DNA of 62,608 nt, the filler included. It is 11 parts of 11 records of this genome, joined end to end, with 100 filler letters (N's around TTAATTAATTAA, not from the genome) between each part and the next. Parts side by side here need not be neighbours in the genome. Positions count along the whole stretch, not along the records: positions 21,082 to 26,273 come from SRR15195285_4267; 10 more parts are not named here. One strand, 5' to 3'. Every line of letters starts with the position of its first letter. The stretch's first letter is position 1. Below, one piece after another: positions 14,801 through 43,690 of this stretch. The position numbers and the translations under genes were made by a program. The notes below the pieces were generated by a model. The model worked only from the letters and a program-made list of their open reading frames with translations. It ran no database searches and was not told where the DNA came from.

Positions 14801-16452
14801 TTTGCATCTCTCTGCATGACGGCGGCTGCTTTTTCTGCAACTACCTGCGCCCGCCTGGCTTGGATATCCTCCTCTCTTGCGATACTCTCCTCGATATCTT
14901 TCTCTAGTTGAAGCTCAAATGGCGTCGCCCAGGGTATGGGTTCTAGCCTGTCTTCATCGTTGTAGATGTGACGACGCGCCAGCCATACACAGAACGTCAA
15001 GAAAAAGACGCGACCTTTCTCTTTTGCGCGCAACATTTGGTGTTCTGCTTGGCAGTCGGTGTCTGAGAGTCGCTGGCCCATAAGAGCACACGCAGCTCGG
15101 AAGTCGTTGACATTCAGCGTAGCGTCATCACGTTCCGATATCTCTTCCAACCTTGCCCACATCTCCTGGAAAAATATCGTCGCGCGCAGTAGTGGGGCAA
15201 ACTCTGTCCACTCGACAAGTTCACTGCGGCTACACGCAGCGTGGAATGCACGCCCCAGTGCAACCTGATTCTTCAGACGAGGCCACAGTTCCGCAATAGC
15301 ACGCTGTGCCCCGATCGGGGTCATCAGCATCCGCCGAGCGACCGGACGCTCGTGCGTTGGAGCATCGCTTGCAGCCTCGCACTCTTCTGCAGATGCTCGG
15401 TATTTCCAGAATAATTCGGCCCGTCGCTCGTACGTTGGAAACAGTAGCCATGGGCGGCCCCCGGCTTCCTGCACGCCTGGATCATCTGCATACAGTCGCT
15501 CCATGATTGCATGCAGCGTCAACGGGCGAAGCGCACGGCCAGTACTCGGATATGTGAGGCGCGCCCAGACTGCTTTTGACAGCTGCCAGTGCACCCTTGA
15601 GTGCTCCGCACGCAAATTCAGGGCTTCTTCGTCGGAAAACTTCGACATGTGCAGATCGTCGCGTACGACGCGTTCAGGAGGTTCGCTATCCAGGCGTCGC
15701 TGGGCCCAGCGCTCATGGCTCAGCTGCGCTGCCCATCGCTCGGCGTTCTTCTGCTGCTTTCGACACCATGCTACTTTCTCCTCCGCGCCGGCTCGCGCCA
15801 TCTCGTGAAGCTTGGCTTCCTCCTTTGCCTCAACTAGTTGTCGCCGAAGCTTCTGAACTTCTGCCGTCATATCCGCGCCTTGCGAGGGTGCGTCAGCTTG
15901 GAGCTCCGCCATGAGGTCCGCAAAATCCCGGTCACCCGTCTCGGGCTCGCGCTCTGCCTCCGGCTCGGGCTCTGGCTGCCGATCCGGATCGGACTCTGGT
16001 TCATCTCTTTTCGCCCGAACCACGGTATTGAACGCATCATCTAGGAGAACCGATCCAAACCCCCCCTCGTCGTACTCAAACTCTACTTGCCATGGAGATG
16101 CTTCGCCCTGGCCTATGTAAGACGTCACTGTCGCAGGGTACCACTTGCCGTCCGATTCGTGCAGGATCGCGTCACCGACGCGAAAGGGGACAAAGCGCAC
16201 CTCGTTGAAAGCATCGTCCAGCAGCACTGCACCCATACCTCCCTCGTCGTACTCAAATGCGACGCGCCACGGCGTTGGCTGGCCCTTAGGGGTGTACTCA
16301 ACCACGATCGCCGGATGCCACTCGTGACTGAGCAGGTGCTCGATGCGATCCCCGATCGCGAAAGGCTCGGTGCGCTCCGCGGACCACATTCCAGCATTAC
16401 TAGCCGCTCGCACGGCCCGCCCAGCCGCCCGAAGCATTGTCTTCCCCGCCAT
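8806..16452 (-). CDS. 2548-aa multidomain protein: Tudor/SH3-like repeats, calflagin-like EF-hand modules, EF-hands, GYF_2-like domain, Armadillo repeats
   Basis: Uninterrupted ORF. Five F.VGD..W..ATV..Y..W.V..LLDD repeats. EF loops DTDGDGVVTWEE, DADRDGSVSRKE, DSDRSGSITISE. GYF_2-like ...NVWASGMDDW. ARM-like repeats in the C-terminal part. Confidence 0.85.
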   Translation of the reverse strand: MAGKTMLRAAGRAVRAASNAGMWSAERTEPFAIGDRIEHLLSHEWHPAIVVEYTPKGQPTPWRVAFEYDEGGMGAVLLDDAFNEVRFVPFRVGDAILHESDGKWYPATVTSYIGQGEASPWQVEFEYDEGGFGSVLLDDAFNTVVRAKRDEPESDPDRQPEPEPEAEREPETGDRDFADLMAELQADAPSQGADMTAEVQKLRRQLVEAKEEAKLHEMARAGAEEKVAWCRKQQKNAERWAAQLSHERWAQRRLDSEPPERVVRDDLHMSKFSDEEALNLRAEHSRVHWQLSKAVWARLTYPSTGRALRPLTLHAIMERLYADDPGVQEAGGRPWLLFPTYERRAELFWKYRASAEECEAASDAPTHERPVARRMLMTPIGAQRAIAELWPRLKNQVALGRAFHAACSRSELVEWTEFAPLLRATIFFQEMWARLEEISERDDATLNVNDFRAACALMGQRLSDTDCQAEHQMLRAKEKGRVFFLTFCVWLARRHIYNDEDRLEPIPWATPFELQLEKDIEESIAREEDIQARRAQVVAEKAAAVMQRDANLQEALRAEEQKDPEARAITLLFGPLWVNITDGDIHGTAKVDDVRDAVFSDPIIQAVIEGQNNKPGDDDQSTFAATAGRPHDASIHAIKQKLEAITRQMDTDGDGVVTWEEFVNFLLLTLFGESGLEPSDLDQLKALKKPRNFKSQWQSIRALRQVGLQDKSQDMDESMLRALKAVAGDPSQTSLDSSTAAAPGDNHPIAPQLSRDSIEALSPRGGVASEQLSASFDADGQHEEDDFETGPGEFYYQDDEGETPKVGVEEALGLMARGVLHIDANVWASGMDDWVSWGQVKDEWLAGIEEPLFQVGEWVYVWHEFKWHYATVTRYTPSNAHDGRWSVTYTFADYSHGVFDGTVLLDDAFDTVRHGPQFRVGDRINVREQNGSQWFEATVTSYVPQGHETEPWRVEFSHDEGGAKQSVLLDDSKHTVRRVFYRQGDRIKVKFTEGARKKAGVLGKQAEQDPESPKALLTELIKEVSVRMDMAVSQHADDKEIHELKQHRAQLHAEYEKQVGEPYYPGEWLNATVTSYHPRGDSEPWRVAYFFDTGGAGAQLLEDNFDRVRILHRSSGDPNHIKLPPLNIGALFQRFLGVIFEQMDADRDGSVSRKEAILAARDSPVIRTLLGLPTNERQTGLGKGLRPEDKRQFDKIFKGVDSDRSGSITISEFITFMKAKLGDVPGLISEEEHDENLRQTKSAVEEALRKKQSAPALAQLCGALSAKHFGRQLAKRVSKWIRMPRQPVRASDWHSSRRLSVPNNQDRETLFTRWARQNGQFLTLSDANHAVEELWPWWMVRREVDPKTRTLRLVAQEWKPPLVRAYRAADTTRCGWIGRAEFRMLLLYTVYFNDEWERLDQVHPIIRTATSAIAGVSDSPTAQTYELDDTAPVDEGQFIFMCCQLGVMKGHHQDPLKRIEGNKLFTELREKYQPLAVRQEEDASADYAADPAASADTSVSSRCSASPTCVHFGDFCSWLVSTHVHQRGVQSQKVAVDLLHRIVAHCENDHDIQSRDEASRLGVFYPLVKMLSEPGARSTDLELLACKALFLLSKDHSGRQAQIVERGALLPVTRIVLRSRGEAAVWATGVMANVCSNESICLVGGSQESTGVCDALIHATANSAEQQLEHATHAIAGVARTNAANRAKLVESGVINLLINVLSEGTQKLAEARAKAQRDLDTRSRLETKPDPWQEQLNAYFLLFEEDREMYPVGGHRFKGTATTGPFIRGIPRAAMTKQSREQLVNHARRLVALEDRLEAMTLETLHGLCPGAKRWAAEALATIVLEAGSIRNVDTMGSAVCAAGALEPLLLLVHHSRDERRSAGLRALAAIAPYCAELAPEHAHEVSQMLSAVAEASQSGLPRHWAVISLFTLLGSRERARLRLPVLAGPREVAAALCEVVEHCNETSVRSAAGAALALALLCRGDDELMKAMVLEESGLAPKKLNAIHYHSAEEPSSDEYTDSEEEELTDENENEEATFPPTVTSKSGAKALLGLLSSKRKSGDKELDWSSASAACRALSVCAAHSVQIRESMGAMEKGDVLKKLVVAAIDSEYATEAERDAKRAQSAIRIDRQDGRSPARPIQQSIALASLLLWSISAIAALAKDCVANQLALVLLSVRSKRSSAPAGNGIVPLLARILGSSASEVYPAPASLLEQTALAVAAVAQNVDETKAQLMRNDVAPALVSLLELASGQPPATRAAAAQAIAALVRNATAHKSIFIQLGAVQGLVRCVQGPRSDGKALKLAAGTALQFMAVNNPSGMRAIIRDGGKVALQLTQRLIKANKQDQQKEQSSPKQVGLQRVPDTTSHGGDSRGGNAPRAPRKVIWDDLDGSGAAAGVTARAARRAMAFEDADQACTLSAPFPNRASAVPAPLQALELANTNEAGRRVEHGRRKGSAQLWPAAAAAASAGPRVGPNRRPPAPKISWRTQLAGGAKLRSGSHATRAAAKKPHVVAKMGGEPRWVSGRRGYVKGEMRGRRSRWLSTENLHYANGGGQPDNLFRGNY

Positions 16453-16972: not shown

Positions 16973-17126
16973 ATTTTGAAGAGACGAGCGGTGAAAACAC
17001 GCGATGATGGCGCTGCGGCGCCCCACNNNNNNNNNNNNNNNNNNNNNNNNNNNNNNNNNNNNNNNNNNNNTTAATTAATTAANNNNNNNNNNNNNNNNNN
17101 NNNNNNNNNNNNNNNNNNNNNNNNNN

Positions 17127-20100
17127 GATCTCAGGTGCAGTGAAATGGGTGGTAACCATTTTATCAAGCATGTGTTCCAGTGGCTTGACAAGGTCGGCTG
17201 AGTAGCGCGGAGCGGACATTCCGGGTACACGGTCTCGCGTCGTGTTCTTTTTCCAAATGTGCTGCGCAACTTGCAGCAGTCCAATTCCCACCGGGCGCTG
17301 GGTGCCATGAATTGCTTTGACAGGAGACAGTGACTTATAGACATTCTTGAACGCTTTCCAGCGCAAGTCAAAGGTTGTTTCAAGTGGTGTCGATGCGTCA
17401 AAATGTTCGCTAGACACGATGGGTGGCCGCATACTTGCCTCCCTGAATGCGATGAAACCTTGAGCGGAAGGGTCACGCGGATCCTGCTTGCGCACCAGCG
17501 CACACATGTCTCTAAGAGCCTCTAGAAGCTTTGTCTCTCGCTCGCTGAACAGCTCCGTCAAAGATTTCGCCACAACAAGCAACTTCTCTGCCATACCAGC
17601 GACGTCTTCGTACGTATGGACGCAGAGAACCTGCTCGTTGAACGGTTGTTTATCGTCCTCCGCGTTCTTCACGAACTCCGACAAAGATTCGACCTCTACC
17701 ACGCGCGCGTATTGGACGAAGAACAGCACCACTTGCTCAAACATGTAGTTGCGACAGACATCGCTCACTGGCCACTCTTCGCCCTGTGATATTGAAAGAA
17801 TCTTGGTAAATTGCTCCAGTTCTTGCTTGAGCATGTCGGCGATCGGTTGCGCCGCGGCATGGTGCGGATTGTGTAGCTTGTCCACAACCCAGATGCCGTT
17901 GTGCCCTTGACGGAGCGATCGAATAATATGCTCTGAGTTAGTATCCACAAACACCTCGCGGAAGAACAGCAGTGTGGTGCGTTTAACATCAATTGCACAT
18001 TTTGTCGCCTCGTCCTGTCTGGTTAGATCCTGTGGAACCAGATCGGGATTGAAAACCTCATGAAGCCGTTTAACAACCTCAGCAAACGGTATTAGTGAAG
18101 CGCACAGCAGCTCAGTCGACGGCATCTTGCCCCTCGCACAGATGCCGAGGAGCTGCAGGCACTGACTGTAGTACTGCAGGTGCCCTTGGCAGCGCTTGGT
18201 CTGGTCGCCCTGCTCCTTGAGGCCTTTGATAAAAACATCCGTTCGATCAAGATGCGGTGCCCCCTGCGCCTCGTTCTTCCCGAGCGTGCCTGTTAACTCA
18301 ATCAAATGTTCTGACGTGCTGGCTCCCTTGCACACTGCAATCTGTGCTGGAGCAACGGTTTGCCCTTTTGATACTAGCAGCGTCTGCAGCAAAGCAATCA
18401 GATCCAGGCTCAACGTGCCCGTCTTGGCTAGAACGCGGACGGTTTCTGTGAGTTTCACAGCATAACGAATGCACAACGTCTCATTATTTGCCACGATCGA
18501 TGTCAAACACTTTGCAACACTGTCGACAAACGGTCTCTGCCCCGTCACACGTGATCCATCGTTGGCGCCGTTGGTGTGCTGCAGCTCCAGCAGTGGAATG
18601 ATTACATCATCCTATAGATACACGCGAACAAGAGCTCGTCAATTTCAACACGCCACTGGTGGATGCAACAAAAGTCAGATGGGCGAAAGAGGATGCAGTT
18701 CAACTCACAACTTGCAGGGCCATCGCGAACTGGTTGGCAGCATTGGAAGAGCAAAACATTTGGACCTAAACCCCAATGCGCTCCTGCCTGTCAGCGTGAC
18801 ACAAAATGGCTCGCCACTAGACAGGAAAACATCAAATGCAGCGGCTCTCACCAGCCTCAAGATGTTGGTGATTAGATCGACGTACTCTTCCCGTATGGGT
18901 TTGTCCTGTCACACCAATGTACATTCTGCCTGAACGCCTTTCTAAAGGACGTATCAACGAAACGAATTGCAAAAACGCTCAGCTGTAGATACAACGTACC
19001 TTGGGCTCGCGAAGCATCAGAAATCGTCTCATAAAAACAGGAAGCCCGAGATTCCGCATCAAGTTCTGGATGACAGCGCTGGGTTCACCTTTGTCGGTGT
19101 CGTCACCAGCATAACATTGTTGCACAAGGCTATCGCAGATTCCAATGAGCTGTTTGCATGCCTTAGACTCGTGCGTCCACTTGTACAGGCGCCGAAAATC
19201 ACTGATTTCAATAGATAAATTGAAAAACAGACTTAACATGGACTCTTTTGTGATGAGAACAACGTTATCAATCGTATTAGCAAGCATGAAATCTTGAGCA
19301 ACAAGGGCGACCAAAGCTTTGAATGAGCGGAGAATGAGCTCCACGTCGTCGTACTGTAGCGCGTCAACAAGCATGGCTGTGAATTCGTCGTCGGGCTTGT
19401 AGTTCGGACCCTTGTCAATTTTGTTGCCTCCACCCCCGGTATCATCATCAAAGACCCGGATGGACATTGCTTTTGCTCGCGCAGTTGCGGCGAAGCTGTC
19501 TCCATTGCCAACTAGCTGTGTAAACTCGGACTCGAACTTTTCGATATAGTCGTCCGGTCTCCACTTAGACTTACTGTTGCACCATACCTTTTTAGATTCC
19601 GCATTGGACGCGACATTTCATTGCAAGAAATCATTACAACTGTCTGCGCGCACCTGAAGATACTGGGCACTGGAGATATTGCTTCATTCTTGAGCTTGGC
19701 ACCCTGTGAAAACGGGTCCTCTGGGCCTTCGTCAGGAAATGTTGATTCGAGCAAGGTTGTGATGCGGGTAGATGCCCGAGCTCCGAACAGAGTTTCCACG
19801 ATTTCCAGAGCTTTGCACTTGAGCCTGTGAAGTGCCACATTTGAATATTCCCGCGTTAGTCTTACACGTACCATTCGAATCGTACACGCAGATGAGATGA
19901 TATGGGTTCTCACTTATTCAGGGCCACGTTGCCTTGGTTTAGGATGAAACGTTCGTTGCCCCTGTACTGTTTCTCATCCTTTTCTTTCTGGGTAGTGAGT
20001 TGACCTCGGTCTAATGGTCTGGTCACTTCCAGAGTACTTCCTTTTCGACCATCGAAGATCCTCAGCATCATCAGAGCAAGCATTTTTGATTCTTGACCTA

Positions 20101-20800: not shown

Positions 20801-21710
20801 TTGACTCGCGATGCCGACCCTGTTGCGCAACAAATGTGTCACCTCATGCCATCCGAGCTTGAGATGTTGAAAAACTACAGTTTGGGTTTATCTAGTTCTG
20901 CAGTCGCATTTAAGTAGTCCTGTAATCATCTGAGAAGGCACTTACATCACAGAAATGCGAAACAGCTTTGACGAAAGCAAGNNNNNNNNNNNNNNNNNNN
21001 NNNNNNNNNNNNNNNNNNNNNNNNNTTAATTAATTAANNNNNNNNNNNNNNNNNNNNNNNNNNNNNNNNNNNNNNNNNNNNAGAGAGAGACAAAAGCAGT
21101 GAGCAATGCAAGCGCCTCAGCTCCTCATCAGGCGAACGGTGGTTAAAATCCGGCATGAGCACCAGAACACGCTAAGAATGTTTTTTGAAAAATCAAGACC
21201 GCTGGGCGTCAGCCGGGACGGAATTCACGCACGCCCATCGCCCACGCCATCGCCACGGTTGTCGAATATACAGACAGCTGTACAGAAAGACCCAAATGTA
21301 TGTGTACACAGTATAGCGATGTTGGGATGGCAATTGCCGTCCTGCACCGGCTTCACGCGCGCATCCGAGGCGCCGACTGCACGGTGCACGCGCGTGCATT
21401 CGACCTCGTAGCTCGGCCTCACCGCAGCTAGGCCTCACCGCGTCCTACGAATGTAGATCTATCAATCCTGCCAGGTATGGTATGTCATGTGTGTACTAGA
21501 TCTAAATAGTACACATGATTAAGCGGAGTCTTGGCCGGGCAGCAACGACCTGCAGGTGACGTGTTCGTGCCCCCCCTGCCCCCCTGCCCCCTTGCTTGCC
21601 CGTTGAGCTTGAGGTCAGTGCAGCCCGTTCTCCTGGATGGGCTGTCGTTTGGGTGCTGTAGAGGTCGGATGCACTGGATACTGAAGGAGCCGGCGGTCCA
21701 CCTGACGTGA

Positions 21711-24700
21711 ATGGAACGACTCGACCCGAGCCCGCTCCCGAGAGACGAACCCGACCGTGACGGACCCCGCGAGCCCCTCATGTCAATACCGAGCTCGCCG
21801 CCGTCCGCCCCGGAGCCGCAGCCCGCGTCGGAGCCGCCTGACGAATTTGCGAAGCAGCTTACAGACTATATGATGGCGCAAGACCCGCCGATAAACCAGA
21901 CGCAGCTTGCGGCACAGCTGGGTGTGACCCCTGGCGCCCTGTCCAAATGGGTATTGGGACAGAGGAAGTGCAAGAGTCAGGCAACCATTCTGCGCACGCT
22001 GGGACTTGGGCCGCCTAAAGTGTTTGCGGAGCAGCTTACAGACCATATGGCGGCGGTGCAAGACCCGCCGATGAAGCCGCGTGGAGCTGCGATGAAGCCG
22101 CGTGGAGCGCGATCCTACCGATCCTCATACTGCAAGGTAGCCAACTGCGAGAAGGAAGCAGCGTGGCATCTCTTGACACCCGAGTTGTGCTATAAGAAGA
22201 CGCTGTGCAGCGACTGTGGCCGGAAGCGTCAGCTAGGTTCTGGGGACGCGTGCTCTCGAGCGACTTGGCAAGCTGCCGAGAGAAGGTGCGGGATCGACAC
22301 TGCCGACAGAAGCACCTGGGCGAGAGACGATCCTCGACGGACTGAGATATGGCAAGCAGCTCTCCCACTCGCCCGGTTGAGCGCACAGCGCGAAGCAGGG
22401 CGCTGGAACAAGGCATCAGCGGCGCCACCGAAGGCAGACCCAGGTCTACCGTTGGCCACAACAGCAGCGCCGTTGCCAAGAGGCGGGGCGCGTTCCGCGC
22501 GCGCTGTGTCTGCTCCTGGCGGCCCTGTGACCTCGCCCGCAAAAGTCGAAGAAGATGATTCTTCCGCATGCTTCGATGAACGGCCCGAGCCGTCGTGGGA
22601 TTCGTCCTCAAGCGATCAAGGCGCTGATGCCGTGCCCGCGTCGCCGTGGGGATGGCTCTCTGTGGATAGCGAAATCCATGATTCGTGGGATTGGTCCTCA
22701 AGCGATGAAGACGCCGATGGGTGGCGCTCTACCGATAGCGAAAACCAAGATTCGTCCCCTTTGTGGAACGAAGATTTGTTAACGAACTCGTGGACGTGGG
22801 CCTCTAGGGATTGCGTCACTGGCGATAGCAAAATCACTGGCGATAGCAAAAACGACAGCCCTAGCTCTGGCGACATCCAGACTGATTTTTTCTCGCATAG
22901 CGGGGACTTCAATTCGGAGGCCCTCACCACCTCATCACCTGAATCGGTAGCCACGTGTTCTATCACTCCAGATGATGAGCGTGCAAGTACCGCAAGTCTG
23001 CTTGACTCCGCCGTAGCACAGGCTGTCATCAACGGAGCCGACCCTTCCCGGCCGCTTGAGATTGCTGATGTCCTGGCGTTGTTACGTCACCCTTGCTGGG
23101 CAGGCGGTCCTCCACCCAAGCGACCACCGCAACTGCCTGAAGACCCGGCAGATCGAGCGCTGCTGTTCCGAGAGCCACGTTCCTTGGGACGTGGCACGAA
23201 TGGTGGAGCGTTGGATCAGTGGGAAACTTTTGAACGTAGCCGAGAAAAGATACTCCAGATCCCCGAAGCCATGCAGTTAACCAACGGACAAAATGTTGCT
23301 GTGTTGCGGCAAGGTCGCGTAATACGTACTGGCAGCCGTCAGCAACAGCTTCAATTTCGTCAGTGGAGCTTGGGGACATCGACGCGAGATGGAGCAGTGC
23401 TAGAGCCACCGAATGGCTCTGATAACCCAACTCTGTACCAGGTTTTCTGTGTGCCGACAGATCCAAAGCAGCAGCAGCAGTCGCAGCAGCGGCACCACCA
23501 GAACCAGAACCACAAGAGGAGGCAGAAGCAAAAGCAGAAGCGCGAGCAGCGGGAGCAGCAGCAGCAGCACCAGCACCAGAAGCAGCAGCATTGTCTTTCA
23601 GATCCCTTTGCACCTGCACATATCGATTTTCATCCACTTGACATGTGTCCGGGTGACAGAAAAACTCTTAAGGAGTCGCTCCTTGGAAAAGCTCCACCGA
23701 AAAGGCAGCGACTGATACCATTATCCTTGCATACCCAAGTGCTGGCGGTAGTCGGTTGCCTTACGGTGTTGGGCCTGATAGTTTTCCACGCCGCCGGTCG
23801 TGGCAACAGCTCGGACAGCACAACTGATACATTGCCTAGTGGAATAACATGCAGCCTCACAGCCGAGGGATTAGCGCACGGATTGCCCTCGTCCATTGAA
23901 GGCTGCAAACGTGTTTCACCGACGCAAAATGTTGCATGTAGCTTCAAGTGTGCGCCAGGGTATTTTCCTTCAGGCAGACTTACCTGCGGAGTTGGGGTGG
24001 GCCCTCTAGACGGCGGCGGTGCTTCTTGCCTCGCGTGTTCGCCTGGGAAGTTCTCGGACGGGAAGGATGAATGCGAGACGTGTGCTCTATGCCCTCAGGG
24101 CTACATGACGGTATCCTCGTGTACACTCAGCAATAATACCCGTTGCATGCGGTGGGCACAGCACCTGAATCTCGGCGCCGCGACCAACTCGTCGCACAGC
24201 TGGCACCTGCCTCAATTCACCAGTGTCTTGAGACCTTTGGCTACTCGGGGGCTGGTAGCATTTGGTGGTATCAGTCCCCCCAAAACTTATCGCACCTTCG
24301 ATGATGTGAAACCTAGTCTCCCGCCGACGTCGTTCTGCCCTATACAGGGGGCACGTACAAGCAGCGAACTCTGGATGGCGCGGTGTTCAGGGTTACATTT
24401 ATATGGCTGCCAGGATTGGGAAGAATGGCGCCTCTTTGGTGGCTACACTACTCGCGTTCATCTCGTGGCGCATACATCATTGGGCCAGCAAGGCTGGCCA
24501 AGCGCTCGCTCGTCTGCAGTCTCACTCAGTGTCCCCACACATGTGCAGCCGCATCCGCTTATTCCGAACACAACAGTCCGAGCGACAACTTTTGCAATCA
24601 TGTTCAGTGGAGCTTTTCCGCCGCCCTGCCTCACGTCGAACCTGGGTCCAACGGACATCGAGTTCTTGATGAATCCTTCTGACATGTGGTCCTTCGCATT

Positions 24701-26096
24701 TCGTGATGACAGCTCCGGCACGCCGGTACCAGCATGGAGTCGGTTCGGCGGGCACCAGTCTTGGAGAAAACACTCAGTGACTTCGTTCCAAAGCACGATG
24801 TCCGCCGGTTGCGAAACAGCTGACTCAATAGCTTCCCCAAATGAGGCAGTGAAATGGCCACTCGGGCGCCACGACTCACATATGTGGCTTGTTCGAGGCA
24901 TGCTGTTGCTGTTCAGTGGCGCCACTGACATATTCATGCGAAATGCAGTTGATTGTACAGAACTGAACAAACAATTGTGCATGGTCAAAAGCACCTATCT
25001 GTTGTGCGACTGGTGGACCATGGACGTGCGCAAGTTCAAATGGATAGGGATAGCATCGCAAAGCAATAACACACACCAACCAGGACCGCGAGCCTATGGA
25101 GCCACGTGGACTAGCGACCCAGATCTTCCCACCGCGACTCCCTGGATATTTGGTGGCATTGGTTTAGTTGTTTCAAGCGGTGGAGCAGTGGCTGGCTCGG
25201 CCGTCGTAGCATCTACCGACACGCCACTGCAGACCCTCTGTGACTTGTGGCGTTTCGACGCGAACACAGAGCGGCCATGGCAGCTTATTGGCAGTTGCAG
25301 TGGCAATGCAATCGAGCTAGCTCGTCACGGTCTTGCACCGCGGGGCGTTAGCCCGCATGACATAATGCAAGGATCTGCATCTGTGTACGACTCGCCACTA
25401 ACCGACATGATGCTTTCGGCGGCAGTGCTCGCCGCAACGTGGACTGACAGTCATCATGACTTGTGGCTGTACGGTGGCGCGCGATGTGGCAGCAGTGGTG
25501 AGGTGGGAGTTGTGGACGCGACAGATTGTGCAGCAACGCTCGCAGAAGAGGGGAGACAGCGCCTGAGCTCTAAATTGCATTCCCCTTCCGATGCGTCGAA
25601 GCGCAGCTCTGATCCTCAGCTTGAGCTGCGGGTAGGCCAAGGGACAGTTGCGTGCTCTTCCGACCTATGGCGATTTGACATCCACCGGCTACGTTGGTCG
25701 TCTTACATGCATGCAGAGCTTGTGAGTGACTCGTCCACTGGAAACCTCGCAGGTTCGTGGCCGAAGGCTGCATGCGGTGCAACAACAGTGCCAGCCGTAG
25801 ACATGAAACTCCAGCACGAGGCCAATGACTACTTTGGGGTTATGGTCGGTGGTTGGTCGGGCAGCGCTTTTACGGGATGTGATGACGACGGTGTTGAGGA
25901 TGGCACTTTGCGTGGCGAAAGTAGCGCTGTACACGACGCCGTATGTTCCAACGGTGCCTGGTTTGTTGAAGAGATGAGCGACGACGACGCTCCGGGAGCC
26001 CCGCAAGGCCCAGGTCTCCCAGCAGGCCGTGGCAAGGGTGGTTGGGGTGGCGGCAGGGGTGGTAGGGGTGGCGACATGGCCAACGGGCAAGGGTGA
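21711..26096 (+). CDS. Single-pass membrane protein: N-terminal HTH/Zn/CG-1-like region, polyQ, NLS, TM, Cys-rich TNFR-like region, Kelch-type propeller
   Basis: 1461-aa ORF. HTH INQTQLAAQLGVTPGALSKW. TM VLAVVGCLTVLGLIVF (about 23739-23790). TNFR-like CSPGKFS..C..C..C..C....NTRC. Kelch-like P.R....W...FGG and DLWRFD repeats. Confidence 0.8.
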   Translation: MERLDPSPLPRDEPDRDGPREPLMSIPSSPPSAPEPQPASEPPDEFAKQLTDYMMAQDPPINQTQLAAQLGVTPGALSKWVLGQRKCKSQATILRTLGLGPPKVFAEQLTDHMAAVQDPPMKPRGAAMKPRGARSYRSSYCKVANCEKEAAWHLLTPELCYKKTLCSDCGRKRQLGSGDACSRATWQAAERRCGIDTADRSTWARDDPRRTEIWQAALPLARLSAQREAGRWNKASAAPPKADPGLPLATTAAPLPRGGARSARAVSAPGGPVTSPAKVEEDDSSACFDERPEPSWDSSSSDQGADAVPASPWGWLSVDSEIHDSWDWSSSDEDADGWRSTDSENQDSSPLWNEDLLTNSWTWASRDCVTGDSKITGDSKNDSPSSGDIQTDFFSHSGDFNSEALTTSSPESVATCSITPDDERASTASLLDSAVAQAVINGADPSRPLEIADVLALLRHPCWAGGPPPKRPPQLPEDPADRALLFREPRSLGRGTNGGALDQWETFERSREKILQIPEAMQLTNGQNVAVLRQGRVIRTGSRQQQLQFRQWSLGTSTRDGAVLEPPNGSDNPTLYQVFCVPTDPKQQQQSQQRHHQNQNHKRRQKQKQKREQREQQQQHQHQKQQHCLSDPFAPAHIDFHPLDMCPGDRKTLKESLLGKAPPKRQRLIPLSLHTQVLAVVGCLTVLGLIVFHAAGRGNSSDSTTDTLPSGITCSLTAEGLAHGLPSSIEGCKRVSPTQNVACSFKCAPGYFPSGRLTCGVGVGPLDGGGASCLACSPGKFSDGKDECETCALCPQGYMTVSSCTLSNNTRCMRWAQHLNLGAATNSSHSWHLPQFTSVLRPLATRGLVAFGGISPPKTYRTFDDVKPSLPPTSFCPIQGARTSSELWMARCSGLHLYGCQDWEEWRLFGGYTTRVHLVAHTSLGQQGWPSARSSAVSLSVPTHVQPHPLIPNTTVRATTFAIMFSGAFPPPCLTSNLGPTDIEFLMNPSDMWSFAFRDDSSGTPVPAWSRFGGHQSWRKHSVTSFQSTMSAGCETADSIASPNEAVKWPLGRHDSHMWLVRGMLLLFSGATDIFMRNAVDCTELNKQLCMVKSTYLLCDWWTMDVRKFKWIGIASQSNNTHQPGPRAYGATWTSDPDLPTATPWIFGGIGLVVSSGGAVAGSAVVASTDTPLQTLCDLWRFDANTERPWQLIGSCSGNAIELARHGLAPRGVSPHDIMQGSASVYDSPLTDMMLSAAVLAATWTDSHHDLWLYGGARCGSSGEVGVVDATDCAATLAEEGRQRLSSKLHSPSDASKRSSDPQLELRVGQGTVACSSDLWRFDIHRLRWSSYMHAELVSDSSTGNLAGSWPKAACGATTVPAVDMKLQHEANDYFGVMVGGWSGSAFTGCDDDGVEDGTLRGESSAVHDAVCSNGAWFVEEMSDDDAPGAPQGPGLPAGRGKGGWGGGRGGRGGDMANGQG
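23468..23590 (+). repeat. CAG-rich tract encoding a polyQ/basic low-complexity segment
   Basis: Encodes KQQQQSQQRHHQNQNHKRRQKQKQKREQREQQQQHQHQKQQH. Confidence 0.9.
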
Positions 26097-26655
26097 GGCT
26101 TAGCGTCTGCTTTGCGCTACGTTCGAGAGTACGCTGAAAGGAGCCATTTTGGAATGAAAACCAAGCTTCGCAAACAGCGTGCTTGACCGATTGGGTTGAA
26201 CACCCACTTCCGGTAGTTGGTATCGAGCAGATGCTGATTAGGAATAGTTAGATGTGTATTCACATCGTCGGTGNNNNNNNNNNNNNNNNNNNNNNNNNNN
26301 NNNNNNNNNNNNNNNNNTTAATTAATTAANNNNNNNNNNNNNNNNNNNNNNNNNNNNNNNNNNNNNNNNNNNNTTGAGCGTACACATACAATTGACTGGT
26401 GATATATATACCCGGGCTCGCCCTCAGGCCGCAGCTGCGTGCCTCCAGGCCTCCCTGATGGACAGCTGCTGCGCCAGGGAGTCCTCGCGCATGGCTGAGC
26501 GGACGGCGATTGCCGCCGCTGCCCGCTCCCCAGTTGAGTGAGGGCATTCCTGGCTGGACCAGGCGATGCGTGCGGGCTGCGAGCTGAGACAGGGATGTCT
26601 CGAGGGGTTGGAGTAGTGAGGCAGGAGGACTGCGGCGCGGCCGTGCAGAGAGAGG

Positions 26656-29600
26656 ATGGCTTCGCGGCGACGCTTCCGAGCCGGTCAGAGTCCCACCACC
26701 GCGCCGGAGATCGGCGAGATCACGCCGCATGAGGAGTCCACGTCAGGCGAGGAGGATGTTTTTGATGACGATCATTCGTGGGCGGCTGCTCTGAACTCCG
26801 ACGTTGAGGCGGAGCTATACCATGCGGTCGAGGCACTCGACGTGAACTCCAAGAGGCAACTGTTGCGACTGCTACAAAATGCTGAACACGAGATGGAGGA
26901 CCACAATGGAACGACTGTCGGCGAGTTCCTCGAAGAGGTCGGGGCGGATAAAAACCGTGAGTTCGAGCTGTTCGAAAAGAATCTGGAGAATCTGAAGAGC
27001 TTTGATCTACTGCTATTCCGAGGCAGCGACTTCGTGAGCGACTTCATTATCAAGCTGACGACTAAGCACCGGGGTGTCGATTTCTTCTCGCACGTGGGCA
27101 TCTGCCTCACCCCACCGCTGCTGCCGCGCGACGGCCACTATATGAAGCGCGGTAAATTCGAGGCAGCAGCCAAGGTCTTGCCTTTTGTACAGCTGAGACT
27201 CAAGCTTTGCGATGCGCAGTCTGGCGACCCCGCTATGCCGCATGACCTGTCGATCACTGTGCTCCAGTGTCGAGGTCTCCCGTCGCGCTTTGATGAGGGT
27301 GGTCTGAAGGAGGACCCGTACGTCCGCGTCAGCCTCACGCCGTACGACGACATCGAAAATCGGAGCTCAGTCACAACCACTTTCTTTCGCACCAAAACCG
27401 TGTGGCATGGTGGCCACAATCCACAGTTCGCTGCTCATCACAGTAACAACGGCGTGCTTCATCTCCCCGCTGCGCCGCATCCGCAACCCCCTCAGCTCCG
27501 CATCCAGGTCTGGGACGAAGATCGTCTATCACCAGATGAGTTGGTAGGCTTGCACAATCTCGACGTGGACAATCGGCTGCTACAGCAGATGGCTTCAACA
27601 ACAGGGACGACCCGGTGGTTACTGCTGGACGTGGTCGACAGTGTGACCGACGGCTCGATATATAGCAAGATTCAGCTGCCGAACTATCACAGACCGGAAG
27701 ATGTCACTCATCAAGAAGGGATCAAGCGAATAGCAACTGAAGACCACGAGCATGACCTTACGCTCGGCCCGGAGCGAAAACCGTCCTCGGAGAACTACAC
27801 GTCAGCAGCTGCGCGGCGTATGGCAAACTTTCTCAACGATCCGGCCGCTGCATTCGTGGCTACGCAGGCCGCAGTAGCGAACAGCGCTGCAGGTTTTCAC
27901 GGTCCGAACGCGTCGGGTGCTCGTGCTGCTTCACTAGTGGCTGGCGCTGAGTGTACGCCCGACTCGCGGAAGGGTGGTTCTGTAATACGTGGCAACGTCT
28001 TGATGGCACCAATGGGTTTGGACTACAAGGCTCTGTACGTGCATGAAAAGCAGCGCTCCCTTCCCTGGCAGGAGCGGTGCCTCGCTGCGATGTATACGTG
28101 GAAGTATTACGTTTTCCTGGTGTTTCTGGCGCTGCTCACTGTCTGCACATTCGAAGCAAAGAGCATGACGCTGACCGCGGCGGTCCATAAGCTGCTTTCG
28201 GATGATATGAACAGGAGGATTGGTCTGAGCGGAACGCTGCGGCCGTTTGGCTGGGAGTGGCTTTGGCAACATCCGGTGTGGGTGGAAGTTGCAGATTGGT
28301 CACTGCTCTGCTTTTTGGTGCTGGAGTGCATAACCCGTGTGCTTTGCCTAGGAATTGTAGCATTTTCATCCAGCTGGAACAACGTCACGGACATATCGTT
28401 TGTTGCAATTGACGCCGTGCTGTCAATATTCGAATACGTGATCTGGGCAGAGCTAGGCCATAGAGACTACAGGAACGGAGGTGTCGTTTCAATCACAAAC
28501 GAGGCTGGGGAGTCGCATGGAATGGCGAACACGACCCGAGTGTGGCACGTGTGGGATACTAGCGAGGAGGTCGTCCATACATTGGAGAACCATGAGCGCT
28601 GGATGTGGTGGGAGCAAACGCCAATGAAGTTCATGGTGGTGGTTATCATGCGGAACCTCAAGCTGGTGCGCCTACTGCCACGCCTACTTGCTCTGCGGAA
28701 GAAAGTAAGAAGACAGCGTAAGGGGTCCAAATGGGGGCTTCACGAGGTTATAGCGAGACGGACCAACCGTGGCATCGAAATTTCTTGGGCGAACGTGCTG
28801 TACATGCAAGGGCAAGAAGAAGATCAGGAGATATCGGCATACACTCGTGGGCCGCTGCTGATAGGTATCGATCCTTCATCGCCTGCGCGACCCGCGACAG
28901 TGTTGGACAAGTTTACACACATTGATCACCTTCAGAGCAGGTCAGACTACTGCTTCAAGGTGCCAGCTGTGTCTGTCCCAGACGACTCTGAGGCCCCGGG
29001 TGCGGCCGCCAAGGGCGTCTGTGGTTGTCGAATCTCTTCCAAAAAAAGCACATCACCGATGGCAGGATCGAGAACAAATCGCTTCGTTGGTTATCTGCAG
29101 TTTGATGCAGAGAAGAAAGACGTACGCGACGCATGGATTGAAGCGCTCAACGCTGAATTTGCACGATTTCTGGAAGACCAACCGTCCTCTGTGCTTGCGA
29201 TTGAGGTGCGACAGGAGCAAGCGGAGTTACGGCGGCTGGCCATGGCGGCGGTAACGACGGTGCGGCTCTCACTGCGGCTCCAGATGAACAGGTCGGGACC
29301 ACAAAAGGGCCGAAACTTCTCTGTGTTCTTCGAGGAGTTTGCAAACACTCACGGCATTAAAGGTGCGTCCGGCCGCCAGCACAACCTCTCTGGAGACCTC
29401 GGCAGGCTTGCCGACAGGGCTACGACAGCCGCTGCAAATCAAGAGCTCAGCTCCCATCAATTTTCAGTATTGGATCGCGACACTGATGGTGTTGACGATC
29501 CGGCCGTATCGCCATCCCGCATTCGTGATTTGCGGACCACTTCCAAGGTTGAGAAGAATGAGGTCAAGCTGAAGGAGCACTACAGCGATGGTAGCCCTGT

Positions 29601-31914
29601 ACACTACGTGTGGGAAGCGAGCGCCAGCGGGTCGATTGCTGGGACCCAGGTGTTGGCTGAAGAAAGTGGATCCGGCCATATTGGGGTTCAAATCCGCAAC
29701 CTCAACGGTGTGCTGCGCGATTACGACGGCGAGATTGCTGCATTAAGACTCGTGGGAGGATTCGATCAAGGTGACGGAGAGTCGGAGCAATCAGGTGAAC
29801 ACGTCGTGGCGGCAGCTCTTGGCCAGGCGAGTGGCGAAACAACGGACGAGGTTCGGCACCTCCTCACGCGAATGCATGAACAGTTCTATTTGCGCAAGTA
29901 TGAGGTCAACGTCTTTTACCAGCTCTCGGCGCTTTATCCCTCTCTGCAGCCGCTAGCAACACTGTGTGACTACCTGTGCTGCCGTGGGCGCAAGGGCTCC
30001 GAGTCATTGTTCTGCTCGCAGTTCAACGCAGATATCTATCAAGGCATGGGCTTGATGTCTCCGGAAGTTGACCCAAGCACTGTGCTACCAGTCGATTTCC
30101 TCCCCAGCCTTGCGTTGCCAGGATTCCCCCGGTTCGCCAGTGAGATTATTCCCTTGAAGGTGCGAAAGAGCAAGGTCAAAGGTCAGTACTTGCTGGCCCA
30201 TGAGGAGGAGTCGGCTGCGAAAGAGCGTTGGAAGCTCTCTTCTGCATCGATAGGCCTTGCTACAGCGGACAGATTTGGGGAGCAAGGCGGCAATCATCAC
30301 ATGACCAAGCACATCCGGGTTTCACAGCAGACGGCGCTTCGCGCGCAAAAAGACGTCGCCGATGTTTTGAGCCGTGCTGAGCAGGCCCATGCAGCCAGCG
30401 CCGTCAAACAACGAAGCAGTTCTCATGATATTGAAAACTCCGCCGCGGCTCGAGGTGTTGGCAACAGCAGCCACAGGTCTGCAGTGCGGCGTGGAGCTGG
30501 CTTGCAACAGCGTGCAGAGAGCCCGCGCAGCATCTCAAAAATGGGGCTAGCAGGGTCGCCTCGTGGTACACCTACCAAGATCTCCATCAATGCAGCAGTG
30601 ACCAAAAGTAAACTTTTTGCCAACGTAAAAGCTGGAAATGTATCTGCTGTCAAGAAGCTGCTGTGTAGTGGTGCCCTTCCCAACGACAGCAACGACGACG
30701 GTGACCCACCTGTCTGCTGGGCATCCTTGAGGGGGCATGAGGGGGTCGTGGTTGCCCTGCTTGCGGCTGGCGCGGAGGTGAACGCACCAGACAGTTGCGG
30801 GAGCACCGGGCTCATCCATGCAGCTAAGTGTGGCCATGCAAGTGTCTGTGCGGTGTTGCTGGAGTCGAACGCGGATGTTCACTTGAAGGATGAGCACAGT
30901 CAGACTGCCCTCAACTACGCAAAGCGTTTCAAAAAACATGATGTGGAGCGTATAATCGAAGCTTGGATCGACGCGAAGTTTACTGTCGTGAGCCCTGAGT
31001 CCGAGGCAGAAGCGGTTGGAGAAGCGGGCAGCAGCAGCCATAGTAGTGCTACAGTGGGGATGTTAGCGGCAGCTGCAATGGTCGAGAAAGCGCGCCTGGC
31101 ATCGTTGGCGACAACAAAGCGACAGGGGGAGATGGACTCTTCGATAAACGCTATGAAGACTCAACATCAGTCAGAACTCGAGAAACTCTCTGAGAAAATA
31201 TCAGTCGTTATGTTGGAGAATGCCAGGCTTGCGTCAATATGTGGTGAGGAGCCAGTGTACAACACTCCTACTTCCCCAGTGCTACCTCCGTCGTCAACGC
31301 CGCCCTCGGCCACGGACGTACAGGTGCACGAGCACTTGATATCTGGGCACGACTTGGAGCATGGCCAGGAGCTGCGCGAGAAGGAGACTGTGCTCCCGAA
31401 AGAGGTCGAGATCTTGTTGCCACGAACCGAGTCTGGCGTGGTTGGCGTTGACTCGGGCTCTGAGTCTTCTGCGAAGAGCCGACTTCGGGCCCGACCTCGT
31501 TTTCCCAAGCTTCACATGGAAGACTCGCCCGCGTATCGACCACGTCGCCGGGAGACCTCCTATAACCAGACGGACAACCAGGATATCATCCCGCCCTCTT
31601 CTAATTCCGCAGCTCCGCCTCAACCTGTGCTTGAGAAGGCCGCTGAAGCGTCGCAACTCGTTTTAAATCGGCCGGGCCGTCCTGACATGTCCCCTGCGTC
31701 TGGTGTCACCCGTGAACCAGACCAGGTCGCGCGCGCACGTGCGCAGGAAGTCCTACAGCCCGGGATCACTGGGACCGGCACAGAGCGCTCCCCTGGTAGT
31801 CTCCGGCGCGCACCATATCAATCTAACGTGCCACGCACCCAGAGTGCCGTAGCCCAGAGGGCGATGATGCTGCTGGATAGTGACACGGAGGAGACTAGTG
31901 AAGAGGAACACTAG
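26656..31914 (+). CDS. 1752-aa protein: split permuted papain-like (NlpC/P60) domain, C2, voltage-sensor domain, PH-like domain, ankyrin repeats, coiled coil
   Basis: FDLLLFRG..FSHVG; C2 motifs DPYVRV/RTKTV/NPQF/IQVWDED; S2 F..E...R, S3 WN..D, S4 RNLKLVRLLPR; PH C-terminal helix RDAWIEALN; YVWEAS..GVQIRNL..LFCSQ..DIY..P.DFL; 3-4 ankyrin repeats at about 30610-30960. Confidence 0.85.
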   Translation: MASRRRFRAGQSPTTAPEIGEITPHEESTSGEEDVFDDDHSWAAALNSDVEAELYHAVEALDVNSKRQLLRLLQNAEHEMEDHNGTTVGEFLEEVGADKNREFELFEKNLENLKSFDLLLFRGSDFVSDFIIKLTTKHRGVDFFSHVGICLTPPLLPRDGHYMKRGKFEAAAKVLPFVQLRLKLCDAQSGDPAMPHDLSITVLQCRGLPSRFDEGGLKEDPYVRVSLTPYDDIENRSSVTTTFFRTKTVWHGGHNPQFAAHHSNNGVLHLPAAPHPQPPQLRIQVWDEDRLSPDELVGLHNLDVDNRLLQQMASTTGTTRWLLLDVVDSVTDGSIYSKIQLPNYHRPEDVTHQEGIKRIATEDHEHDLTLGPERKPSSENYTSAAARRMANFLNDPAAAFVATQAAVANSAAGFHGPNASGARAASLVAGAECTPDSRKGGSVIRGNVLMAPMGLDYKALYVHEKQRSLPWQERCLAAMYTWKYYVFLVFLALLTVCTFEAKSMTLTAAVHKLLSDDMNRRIGLSGTLRPFGWEWLWQHPVWVEVADWSLLCFLVLECITRVLCLGIVAFSSSWNNVTDISFVAIDAVLSIFEYVIWAELGHRDYRNGGVVSITNEAGESHGMANTTRVWHVWDTSEEVVHTLENHERWMWWEQTPMKFMVVVIMRNLKLVRLLPRLLALRKKVRRQRKGSKWGLHEVIARRTNRGIEISWANVLYMQGQEEDQEISAYTRGPLLIGIDPSSPARPATVLDKFTHIDHLQSRSDYCFKVPAVSVPDDSEAPGAAAKGVCGCRISSKKSTSPMAGSRTNRFVGYLQFDAEKKDVRDAWIEALNAEFARFLEDQPSSVLAIEVRQEQAELRRLAMAAVTTVRLSLRLQMNRSGPQKGRNFSVFFEEFANTHGIKGASGRQHNLSGDLGRLADRATTAAANQELSSHQFSVLDRDTDGVDDPAVSPSRIRDLRTTSKVEKNEVKLKEHYSDGSPVHYVWEASASGSIAGTQVLAEESGSGHIGVQIRNLNGVLRDYDGEIAALRLVGGFDQGDGESEQSGEHVVAAALGQASGETTDEVRHLLTRMHEQFYLRKYEVNVFYQLSALYPSLQPLATLCDYLCCRGRKGSESLFCSQFNADIYQGMGLMSPEVDPSTVLPVDFLPSLALPGFPRFASEIIPLKVRKSKVKGQYLLAHEEESAAKERWKLSSASIGLATADRFGEQGGNHHMTKHIRVSQQTALRAQKDVADVLSRAEQAHAASAVKQRSSSHDIENSAAARGVGNSSHRSAVRRGAGLQQRAESPRSISKMGLAGSPRGTPTKISINAAVTKSKLFANVKAGNVSAVKKLLCSGALPNDSNDDGDPPVCWASLRGHEGVVVALLAAGAEVNAPDSCGSTGLIHAAKCGHASVCAVLLESNADVHLKDEHSQTALNYAKRFKKHDVERIIEAWIDAKFTVVSPESEAEAVGEAGSSSHSSATVGMLAAAAMVEKARLASLATTKRQGEMDSSINAMKTQHQSELEKLSEKISVVMLENARLASICGEEPVYNTPTSPVLPPSSTPPSATDVQVHEHLISGHDLEHGQELREKETVLPKEVEILLPRTESGVVGVDSGSESSAKSRLRARPRFPKLHMEDSPAYRPRRRETSYNQTDNQDIIPPSSNSAAPPQPVLEKAAEASQLVLNRPGRPDMSPASGVTREPDQVARARAQEVLQPGITGTGTERSPGSLRRAPYQSNVPRTQSAVAQRAMMLLDSDTEETSEEEH

Positions 31915-32510: not shown

Positions 32511-32610
32511 NNNNNNNNNNNNNNNNNNNNNNNNNNNNNNNNNNNNNNNNNNNNTTAATTAATTAANNNNNNNNNNNNNNNNNNNNNNNNNNNNNNNNNN
32601 NNNNNNNNNN

Positions 32611-39400: not shown

Positions 39401-40267
39401 GCTGTGGAATGATTGCGCTCCACGGAGCAATCGGGGTTGTCTTGAAGCCTTCAGACAGAACATCCTCAAGATCACTGCCATGTTTCACCAACAGTCGAAG
39501 CAGTCGCAGTGTCACCATGATGTCACGATCGTCACAATCGAAAGCAAGCGTGGTAGATGTTCCTTGAGCGGCAGAGCTCGCCAATGTCCCATCCATATCG
39601 TTGTGCTGGCGATGCGTTTTACCCACTTGCAGGTATCGAAAGTAGCTCTGTGCCGCAATCCGGTACAGGCCGAGCATGCGTCGGCGCACGTACGTCCACA
39701 ACTGCATGAGATCATCAGCTGCGGCCTTAGCACTGCCAATGTACTGTAAAAGCGCGCTGCGAACCTCTGCGTCTTGGTCTTCTAAGACTGTGCCCATACC
39801 CCCCTCCTCACTTTGACTAGCCTCGCCATATTTCTGGAAGAGTTCACAGACCAAATTAACACACGTCTGGAGGTGCTGGCCCTCGAATGCGGTGGACGTC
39901 TGTAAGATTTCTTGGATGCGCGACAGTTCGGACTGAGTAAGTTGAAAATCCGATGCAACCTGGGTAGGCTGCTCCGTGTCGTTGGACTTGTGCCCCTCGC
40001 GGTAGCACCACGCTGCATGGTGTAGCCAGGCTTTCGCGCAACCTGGAGCCACCGTCTTTGCCTGGTTGATGCAGTCTCCGGCAACCTGGTTCAGCACGTC
40101 GATCGTCACGCCAGTTGTCTGCATGCTACCTCGAATGTTCGCTGCAATGATAGCCTCGATTCCGTCTATAGGATTCCGTCTATGATTCTGCAGCCACCCA
40201 GCAAGTTTCAGGAAAGCTTTTGCTTTCAAATCAGAGTCGGTCTTCATCGGTAGCATTCCTCCGCTTC
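33441..40267 (-). CDS. SMG1: SMG1 PIKK-family serine/threonine kinase (NMD), 5'-truncated, multi-exon at the 3' end
   Basis: TLRLLRLLVKH, IIPQLFAR, ETPHE.WF, LPTKTKPKK..GSDG..KGHEDLHLDERIMQFL, GLGDRH..N, HIDYNVCFEKG..VPE.VPFR, long post-kinase insertion, FATC EATSIENLSLMYEGWTPWI. Confidence 0.93.
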
Positions 40268-40632
40268 NNNNNNNNNNNNNNNNNNNNNNNNNNNNNNNNN
40301 NNNNNNNNNNNTTAATTAATTAANNNNNNNNNNNNNNNNNNNNNNNNNNNNNNNNNNNNNNNNNNNNAGCTTGGGGTCGGTCGACGTGGCGCCCCGTGGG
40401 CTGCCCCACCTCTGCCTGCCGCGATAGCCTGCGCCCTTTTGTGGCAGATCTTGCCAAGCACCGCCCGTGGGTAGTGATACACACCGCCGGGGAGCGAGGC
40501 TCGCGCTTGGGGTACTGTTGAGCGCTCTGTATTCGAAACTATCGGTATTCTGCAGGGGCTGCTGTGCGGTCGATAGTTTCGAAGCTGGCGGCAGCACAGC
40601 TGCCGTGTTGTTAACGCACGCGAGTCGAAAGA

Positions 40633-43590: not shown

Positions 43591-43690
43591 NNNNNNNNNN
43601 NNNNNNNNNNNNNNNNNNNNNNNNNNNNNNNNNNTTAATTAATTAANNNNNNNNNNNNNNNNNNNNNNNNNNNNNNNNNNNNNNNNNNNN

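Follow-up and report, generated by a model that had tools for sequence, protein, structure and literature searches.

The subject of this study is one open reading frame (ORF) in a 62,608-base stretch of DNA, hereafter called the window. The ORF encodes a protein of 1461 amino acids (aa), probably from a marine protist of the Picozoa. The best reading of this protein is a membrane-tethered transcription regulator, and we hold this reading tentatively, at close to an even chance. Two features carry it: a transmembrane (TM) helix anchors the protein, and a part of a DNA-binding type lies on the predicted cytosolic side. For the cytosolic domains, the likeness of their folds to known ones is what suggests DNA binding. 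The protein is predicted to be a type II (N-in, C-out) single-pass protein, divided into a cytosolic part of 676 aa and an ectodomain of 766 aa. The positions of the features are collected in Table 1.

The protein belongs to a small, unnamed family of marine picoeukaryotes, probably Picozoa. A HMMER search with aa 661-1461 against 1.84 billion protein representatives gave 20 representatives at E ≤ 1e-3 and 8 at E ≤ 1e-30, and some of these are labelled Picozoa. Nine members were retrieved. In eight of them (861-1297 aa), the matched region begins 80-460 residues from the N-terminus. In the ninth (P0006, 471 aa), which is fragment-like, the match starts at residue 14; another protein (P0015) lacks its 5′ end. 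The full-length members share one order of parts: an acidic Ser/Asp/Trp tract, a domain of about 140 aa, a linker, a juxtamembrane motif, a basic cluster, the TM helix and the ectodomain. The juxtamembrane motif has the pattern I-D-F-x-x-L, and D639 is invariant in 9/9 aligned members. Other searches added little: a word-indexed homologue search with the whole protein recovered only one partial protein (P0002, 817 aa), and the same search with the N-domain of P0005 recovered 4 proteins. A pattern search of metagenome loci gave 121 pattern matches with no relative among them, and a metagenome scan with the homologue P0037 gave one contig of 2284 nt, which carries the last 104 residues. An annotation made earlier from the sequence (the initial annotation) knew of no described family with this layout. 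We likewise found no description of such a layout in the open-access literature. Five relatives (P0005, P0007, P0008, P0009 and P0022) have an extra conserved module of about 50 aa between the acidic tract and the cytosolic domain. Its pattern is P-L-R-M-T-V ... G-D-x-F-L-V-M-Y (for example, at aa ~150-200 of P0005); it is absent from the window protein, and in the five relatives it has no Pfam match at E ≤ 0.1.

The membrane topology was predicted from hydropathy and flanking charges. Kyte-Doolittle values exceed 1.4 in only two segments, aa 668-698 (peak 2.46, at aa 677-695) and aa 1146-1168 (1.69). The latter was considered as a second TM helix and rejected: it is a conserved F-G-G-I-G...G-S-A-V stretch inside the Kelch-like region. 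No segment of aa 1-667 is above 1.4. Thus, there is no N-terminal hydrophobic stretch and therefore no predicted signal peptide. The TM helix of the studied protein is flanked by 3 Lys or Arg residues before it and 1 after it. In 13/13 family sequences, representing 10 clusters, Lys and Arg are more numerous in the 15 residues on the N-terminal side of the TM helix (3-7) than in the 15 on its C-terminal side (0-3). Each family sequence has 19-28 Cys after the TM helix and 0-15 before it. Because the charge asymmetry (the positive-inside rule) and the Cys distribution point in the same direction, the N-terminus is predicted to be inside and the C-terminus outside. The TM helix is rich in small residues throughout the family. 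These results agree with the initial annotation, which had described a type II protein without a signal peptide, with a single TM segment at about 23739-23790. It had named a reversed topology as evidence against its reading, and the flanking charges predict the opposite in all 13 sequences.

Two basic clusters lie on the cytosolic side of the TM helix. The sequence PPKRQRL (aa 662-668; 23694-23714) is placed just N-terminal of the helix, where the initial annotation had put it, and a K-R-R-Q-K run lies in the Gln-rich linker (aa 586-627). Both are putative clusters of the nuclear localization signal (NLS) type. Pfam rows for DUF7500 (E 0.017), Zip, Presenilin and POP1_C fall on this low-complexity Gln/basic linker and were set aside.

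The conserved cytosolic domain was modelled and compared with known folds. AlphaFold2 modelling of aa 430-600 with a 9-sequence alignment gave a mean predicted local distance difference test score (pLDDT) of 82.6 and a predicted template modelling score (pTM) of 0.78, so the globular domain noted earlier at about 23056-23450 (aa 449-580) is confirmed. The model consists of two helices, six strands and a final helix. VIA structure searches gave a usable ranking, with SSR4, NAC and WOPR at ranks 1, 2 and 10; a Foldseek search of the PDB with the domain model gave no row at E ≤ 1e-3. The features of a NAC fold, namely a twisted antiparallel β-sheet, an N-terminal helix and coverage of most of the domain, are all present in the model. 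Thus, the modelled domain has the fold of the NAC/SSR4/WOPR-type domains, and it is a sequence orphan. The initial annotation had staked its reading on a DNA-binding-type fold in the N-terminal domains, and the likeness of the model to NAC, SSR4 and WOPR is consistent with this. These three folds and the unsolved CG-1 have been united in one α-β5 subgroup of the WRKY/GCM1 clan (Holm 2022, PMC9252788). The wider clan includes GCM and WRKY, and, according to the account of the subgroup given there, no experimental CG-1 structure existed (PMC9252788). In the domain alignment, an invariant D-x-W follows a basic loop, and the β-sheet core has a net charge of +9 to +13 in 8/9 members. Sequence searches with this domain were unproductive. 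Pfam NAM (PF02365) has no match at E ≤ 0.1 in 9/9 full-length proteins, the domain profile gave only two chance-level rows against PDB sequences (E 1.1), and a protein atlas search with aa 430-600 gave no usable match.

The studied member carries an N-terminus of its own: no relative has a counterpart to residues 1-270. The initial annotation placed an XRE/Cro-like helix-turn-helix (HTH) at 21846-22007 (aa 46-99) in this part, and several searches point the same way. Pfam HTH_3 (PF01381) matches aa 62-92 at E 0.005 with 17.3 bits, under the gathering cut-off of 23 bits. In PHROGs, 15 families match at E ≤ 1, all inside aa 39-107 (best E 2.8e-4); 11 of these are annotated as 'transcription regulation', two as HTH DNA-binding proteins, one as a small terminase and one as a transposition protein. 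The best match in a PDB sequence search is a phage immunity repressor (8bny, E 0.16). In a single-sequence AlphaFold2 model, aa 45-116 form five helices at low confidence (pLDDT 57.6); in a Foldseek search with this model, none of the rows reached E 1e-3, and most of the weak ones are XRE-type proteins. Thus, a phage-repressor-type HTH at aa 43-107 is probable. Short internal repeats flank the HTH (21834-22070): F-A-x-Q-L-T-D-x-M...Q-D-P-P occurs at aa 46-60 and at aa 105-120, and the second copy is followed by a tandem M-K-P-R-G-A. Such repeats hint that the first HTH helix was partly duplicated.

A Cys cluster follows the HTH. Five Cys residues (C141, C146, C160, C166 and C169) are present within 22131-22217, as noted before. 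A zinc role, which had been proposed for them, finds no support: the cluster has no family match in Pfam, NCBIfam or PHROGs, and the N-terminal model is too poor (pLDDT 57.6) for the cluster to be classed. NCBIfam has no match to aa 1-235 as a whole. A homologue search with the same residues found none among 1037 candidates, proteins of 129-412 aa being eligible.

The acidic Ser/Asp/Trp tract of the initial annotation was located at aa 279-378, where 100 aa contain 26 Asp and Glu, 21 Ser, 9 Trp and 4 Lys and Arg. Similar acidic segments (17-28 Asp and Glu per 100 aa) occur in 11/13 family sequences and are N-terminal-proximal in 8 of these. The tract is presumably disordered.

The region after the TM helix looks like a receptor ectodomain. 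In the studied protein, it contains 28 Cys and 5 N-x-S/T sequons; Cys and sequons are both enriched on this side of the helix. TNFR_c6 (PF00020) matches aa 776-812 at E 2.7e-4 (21.7 bits, cut-off 29.4 bits); across the family, it is found in 7/9 members at E ≤ 0.1 (best E 3.4e-7), and C788, C791, C794, C804 and C812 are invariant in 9/9 aligned members. In the part that follows, Beta-prop_ATRN-LZTR1 (PF24981) matches 8/9 members at E ≤ 0.1, Kelch_KLHDC2_KLHL20_DRC7 7/9 and Kelch_3 4/9, the Kelch models other than PF24981 ranging from 1 to 7 of 9. The best E-values of the propeller models run from 1.7e-6 (Kelch_3) to 2.5e-4, and that of PF24981 is 6.8e-5. For the studied protein itself, the propeller-model scores that were listed are all under their cut-offs, the PF24981 score being 13 bits against 50. 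Many columns of invariant Gly-Gly and Trp are seen in this region of the family alignments. A search of PDB sequences with the family profile gave no solved structure at E ≤ 0.01. From these matches, the predicted ectodomain is a TNFR-type repeat followed by a Kelch-like propeller, in agreement with the Cys repeats, sequons and Kelch-like blades that had been described after the TM helix.

The extent of the ORF was checked. It is the sole long ORF on its segment (21082-26273, 5192 bp), and the contig stops 177 bases past the stop codon. An in-frame TGA lies immediately 5′ of the ATG at 21711. A codon-usage score, trained on seven other long window ORFs (10,123 codons), favours no frame upstream of the ATG, where all three score negative. 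From aa 2 the ORF frame turns positive, and along the ORF it scores best or near-best; its values peak over aa 2-120 (0.13 to 0.18 per codon) and are weakest over aa 122-210. The G+C content at third codon positions (GC3) drops from 0.69 over the first 150 codons to 0.57 thereafter, and a similar 5′ rise is seen in 9/11 other window ORFs (10/12 long ORFs when the studied one is counted). Because the TGA, the onset of codon usage and the 5′ GC3 rise combine, M1 or a nearby Met is a credible start. Furthermore, Met is absent between aa 128 and 521; therefore, gene models that retain the conserved acidic tract start at or before M128. A shorter database model (P0002), which is 99% identical, begins at M645. 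We considered M645 as the true start and rejected it: M645 lies within the cytosolic juxtamembrane motif, which is conserved in relatives that extend far upstream, and P0002 is therefore taken as a truncation.

RNA libraries were also compared with the ORF. Five runs matched the contig, and the check used short contigs of four runs that are on record as RNA and come from one marine metatranscriptome study. At ≥99% identity, these contigs cover 21602-21779 (spanning the ATG), 22091-22405, 22527-23160, 23262-23460, 23594-23898 (spanning M645 and the TM helix), 24121-25097 and 25328-25866. No joint inside the ORF was found in the RNA-library contigs aligned with it, each of which covers part of the gene, and the stretches between them are not counted as evidence either way. 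In addition, P0023, a contig protein in the database, is identical to aa 1-314 and links the HTH part to the acidic tract; because its run is possibly that of the source sample, it is not independent support. The initial annotation had listed a split of the ORF into two genes as fatal to its proposal. The uninterrupted frame, the codon usage and the RNA-library contigs without an internal joint argue for a single gene. The 5′-high GC3 across the window ORFs is, apart from this, a useful guide to gene starts in this genome. In the 5′ leader, an RNA-library contig of run X3 differs from the window at 21470-21602, where 131 bases 5′ of the ATG are swapped for 18 others; the ends of this stretch (CC..CC) are not intron-like. 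The same contig has several small insertions at 21303-21422. The X3 difference looks like strain variation.

From these parts, the following mechanism can be proposed. The ectodomain would sense a ligand or a contact and would then be shed. A protease able to cut type II helices, of the S2P or SPP/SPPL type, would next cleave within the membrane and free the N-terminal fragment, which the basic clusters would carry to the nucleus. There, the NAC-like domain, together with the HTH in the studied member, would bind DNA, and the acidic Trp-rich tract would activate transcription. These protease types are proposed because, once the ectodomain is shed, release of a type II helix depends on one of them. 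The studied member seems to have independently added a second DNA-binding-type module, the HTH, at the same cytosolic end, and we count this in favour of a transcription regulator. A more specific scheme is possible, although we find it more doubtful than the general reading: Picozoa, an uncultured sister group of red algae, may have a one-polypeptide pathway from sensor to gene, with a TNFR/Kelch ectodomain, a type II helix, a NAC/CG-1-class DNA-binding domain, an acidic activation tract and release by intramembrane proteolysis. The studied member would then be replacing its NAC-like DNA contact, which would be decaying, with a phage-type HTH that it had acquired.

Several points weigh against a transcription regulator. 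The initial annotation had called the cytosolic domain CG-1-like. The fold group is plausible, given the SSR4, NAC and WOPR matches, whereas membership of CG-1 or NAC by sequence did not stand: none of the nine domain sequences has a Pfam match at E ≤ 10, NAM (PF02365) and CG-1 (PF03859) included. The domain profile, searched to E ≤ 10, and the family profile recovered no NAC chain among solved-structure sequences. The domain of the studied protein is the least basic of the family (+5), and neither the K-R-R-Q-K loop nor the W-K-N-S-G-G-K strand of the relatives is present in it. The HTH is under the Pfam cut-off and poorly modelled, and no homologue was found for aa 1-235. One relative (P0004, 861 aa, with 80 cytosolic residues) keeps the juxtamembrane motif, the TM helix and the ectodomain, but its acidic tract and NAC-like domain are missing, either because the gene model is truncated or because the protein is a short paralogue. 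The RNA-library contigs are short, and the libraries they come from possibly carry DNA. Moreover, as the subgroup is presented in Holm 2022, SSR4 and At3g16750, which share this fold, are without support for DNA binding (PMC9252788). This last point, together with P0004, the weakly basic domain, the family-wide conservation of the juxtamembrane motif and the propeller match in 8/9 members, favours a receptor or adhesion protein of the surface or of endomembranes, with an attractin-like propeller, which would never be nuclear and in which the NAC-like domain would be a re-used protein-binding scaffold. The acidic Trp-rich tract and the D-F-x-L-L-type juxtamembrane motif would then recruit trafficking or signalling adaptors; Trp-acidic and D-x-x-L-L motifs are adaptor-binding signals. 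We regard such a receptor as unlikely, though as the most serious competitor among the alternatives. The strongly basic core of 8/9 members and the NLS-like clusters would be unneeded for an adaptor scaffold, and an HTH added at the same end is hard to explain without nucleic-acid binding.

If the fragment were not released at all, the protein could be a membrane-anchored chromatin or DNA binder, for example at the inner nuclear membrane, with its Cys-rich and Kelch part in the perinuclear lumen. Inner nuclear membrane proteins carry NLS-plus-linker signals, and here the DNA-binding-type folds and basic clusters adjoin a low-complexity linker of about 90 aa before the TM helix. However, an ectodomain of 766 aa with TNFR-type and Kelch-like parts and 5 sequons resembles a ligand-binding surface module, and we consider a nuclear-envelope protein the least probable of the explanations. 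A further doubt concerns the first ~270 residues, the HTH and the Cys cluster, which might be non-native owing to a chimeric join in a single-cell amplified assembly, an upstream frame or an unmodelled intron. This is compatible with each of the other three readings, so that the weights given here are not exclusive. The extension is without a homologue, with nothing similar in the 129-412 aa range searched; the codon-usage score dips at aa 122-210; among the RNA-library contigs listed, none bridges 22405-22527; and the protein models of the source, judged by their names, seem to be plain ORF calls. On the other hand, the absence of Met from aa 128 to 521 puts the start of tract-keeping models at or before M128, the codon-usage score is highest at aa 2-120 with its onset at the ATG after the TGA, and the 5′ GC3 rise is like that of other genes. 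RNA-library contigs lie over 21602-21779 and 22091-22405, and P0023 spans aa 1-314 unchanged, with the reservation about its run given above. Thus, a non-native N-terminus appears improbable.

Animals, fungi, plants and Dictyostelium all have known membrane-tethered transcription factors, and the transcription regulator proposed here can be compared with several of them. Plant NTL/NTM proteins have almost no lumenal part. They resemble the studied protein in that a NAC-type fold is cytosolic and N-terminal to a single TM helix, and release is proposed in both. They differ in that the studied protein has the 766-aa TNFR-like and Kelch-like ectodomain after the TM helix, its domain falls outside Pfam NAM by sequence, and an acidic Trp-rich tract precedes that domain. 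Activation by proteolytic release has been described for plant NAC membrane-tethered factors (PMC1802569, PMC9237531), and plant membrane-tethered NAC proteins are described as tail-anchored (PMC9545932). The CG-1 domain of CAMTAs belongs to the same fold subgroup as the best structural matches of the studied domain (NAC, SSR4 and WOPR). CAMTAs are soluble, with ankyrin and IQ parts, and the studied family, unlike them, has no Pfam CG-1 match at E ≤ 10. The D-x-W of the studied family is near the D-x-x-x-W of WOPR and CG-1 (PMC9252788).

The DNA-binding parts of ATF6, CREB3 and SREBP are bZIP or bHLH-Zip, these proteins reside in the endoplasmic reticulum, and, unlike them, the studied protein has no evident R-x-x-L-type site and no Asn-Pro in the TM helix in its translation. 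In ATF6, CREB3 and SREBP, the DNA-binding part is cytosolic, the sensing part is lumenal or outside, and release is by S1P and then S2P. Bacterial ToxR and CadC combine an N-terminal cytosolic DNA-binding domain, one TM helix and an outer sensor in one polypeptide. They are of the winged-helix OmpR type, act at the membrane without a nuclear step, and have no sequence relation to the studied protein. Attractin and MEGF8 have a signal peptide and are type I, and their cytosolic tails are short. The studied ectodomain family matches the attractin/LZTR1 propeller in 8/9 members at E ≤ 0.1, and both groups are single-pass with cysteine-rich modules; the studied protein differs in being type II with a 676-aa cytosolic part. 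The attractin/MEGF8-type cytosolic tail binds an E3 ligase (PMC12752501).

In the open-access literature searched, no large receptor-type ectodomain joined to a NAC/CG-1-class domain is described. The protein may be a new wiring of a surface sensor directly to gene control. If this is true, it would be a compact signalling route in a lineage not yet in culture, of almost unknown biology, and a eukaryotic counterpart of ToxR-type one-component systems. The WRKY/GCM1-clan subgroup (Holm 2022) would gain a sequence-orphan family, and NAC/CG-1-class domains would occur as membrane-tethered factors well beyond land plants. Both the domain and the HTH are open to in vitro tests that need no culture of the organism.

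Table 1 Features of the studied ORF and linkers of the window. Positions are those of the window; predicted features are worded as such.
Feature	Position	Strand	Basis
Whole ORF, 1461 aa, single exon, stop included	21711..26096	+	TGA directly upstream of ATG; codon usage; GC3
Probable phage-repressor (XRE/Cro/CI)-type HTH, aa 43-107	21837..22031	+	Pfam, PHROGs, PDB sequence, model
Cys cluster, C141 to C193	22131..22289	+	Cys positions; codon-usage signal weakest here
Acidic Ser/Asp/Trp-rich tract, aa 279-378	22545..22844	+	Composition; family alignment
Conserved cytosolic α/β domain, modelled NAC/SSR4/WOPR-type fold (WRKY-GCM1 clan)	23007..23450	+	AlphaFold2 model
Gln-rich and basic linker, aa 586-627, with putative NLS-like K-R-R-Q-K run	23466..23591	+	Read from translation
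Conserved juxtamembrane motif and basic cluster PPKRQRL	23619..23714	+	Family alignment
Predicted single TM helix, aa 677-695	23739..23795	+	Kyte-Doolittle peak 2.46; flanks; bridged by RNA-library contig 23594-23898
Cys-rich region ending in TNFR-type cysteine-rich repeat (aa 776-812)	23850..24146	+	Pfam TNFR_c6; invariant Cys
Predicted Kelch-like β-propeller region, aa 830-1420	24198..25970	+	Pfam matches across family
Gly/Arg-rich C-terminal tail, not conserved in family	25983..26093	+	Translation; alignment
Linkers (44 N, TTAATTAATTAA, 44 N)	7381-7480, 17027-17126, 20982-21081, 26274-26373, 32511-32610		
Linkers (44 N, TTAATTAATTAA, 44 N), continued	40268-40367, 43591-43690, 47920-48019, 51993-52092, 56930-57029		

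The window itself is a composite. It contains 20 runs of 44 N, which pair around the twelve-base TTAATTAATTAA to give 10 linkers of 100 bases. These split it into 11 segments of 3.2 to 9.5 kb each, which are separate, unrelated contigs; simple repeats are found at the ends of several of them. Because the window is a chain of joined contigs, genes outside 21082-26273 are not true neighbours of the studied ORF. The source names Picozoa sp. COSAG02 and COSAG06 stand on cluster members of the family, and the window's own protein is under the same source. Judged by these names, the window most likely comes from a Picozoa single-cell co-assembly. Picozoa are plastid-lacking relatives of red algae (PMC8599508).

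Some further features of the sequences were observed. ORFs that cross linkers, such as 17079-18125, 44849-47971 and 52982-56977, are artefacts at the crossing end. Other contigs of the window contain long single-exon ORFs: one at 26656-31914 (+) encodes 1752 aa with C2 and ankyrin repeats, one at 8806-16452 (-) encodes 2548 aa with EF-hands, ARM-like repeats and a MORC2-type chromo-like N-terminus, and one at 34410-40256 (-) encodes a PI3/PI4-kinase of 1948 aa. On the metagenome contig that carries the end of P0037, another ORF (L001:1055-2284, +) begins about 670 bases 3′ of the P0037 stop and is open at its 3′ end. It encodes a trypsin-like peptidase domain (Trypsin_2, E 7.4e-24), HtrA/Deg-like in look, and may be a chance neighbour.

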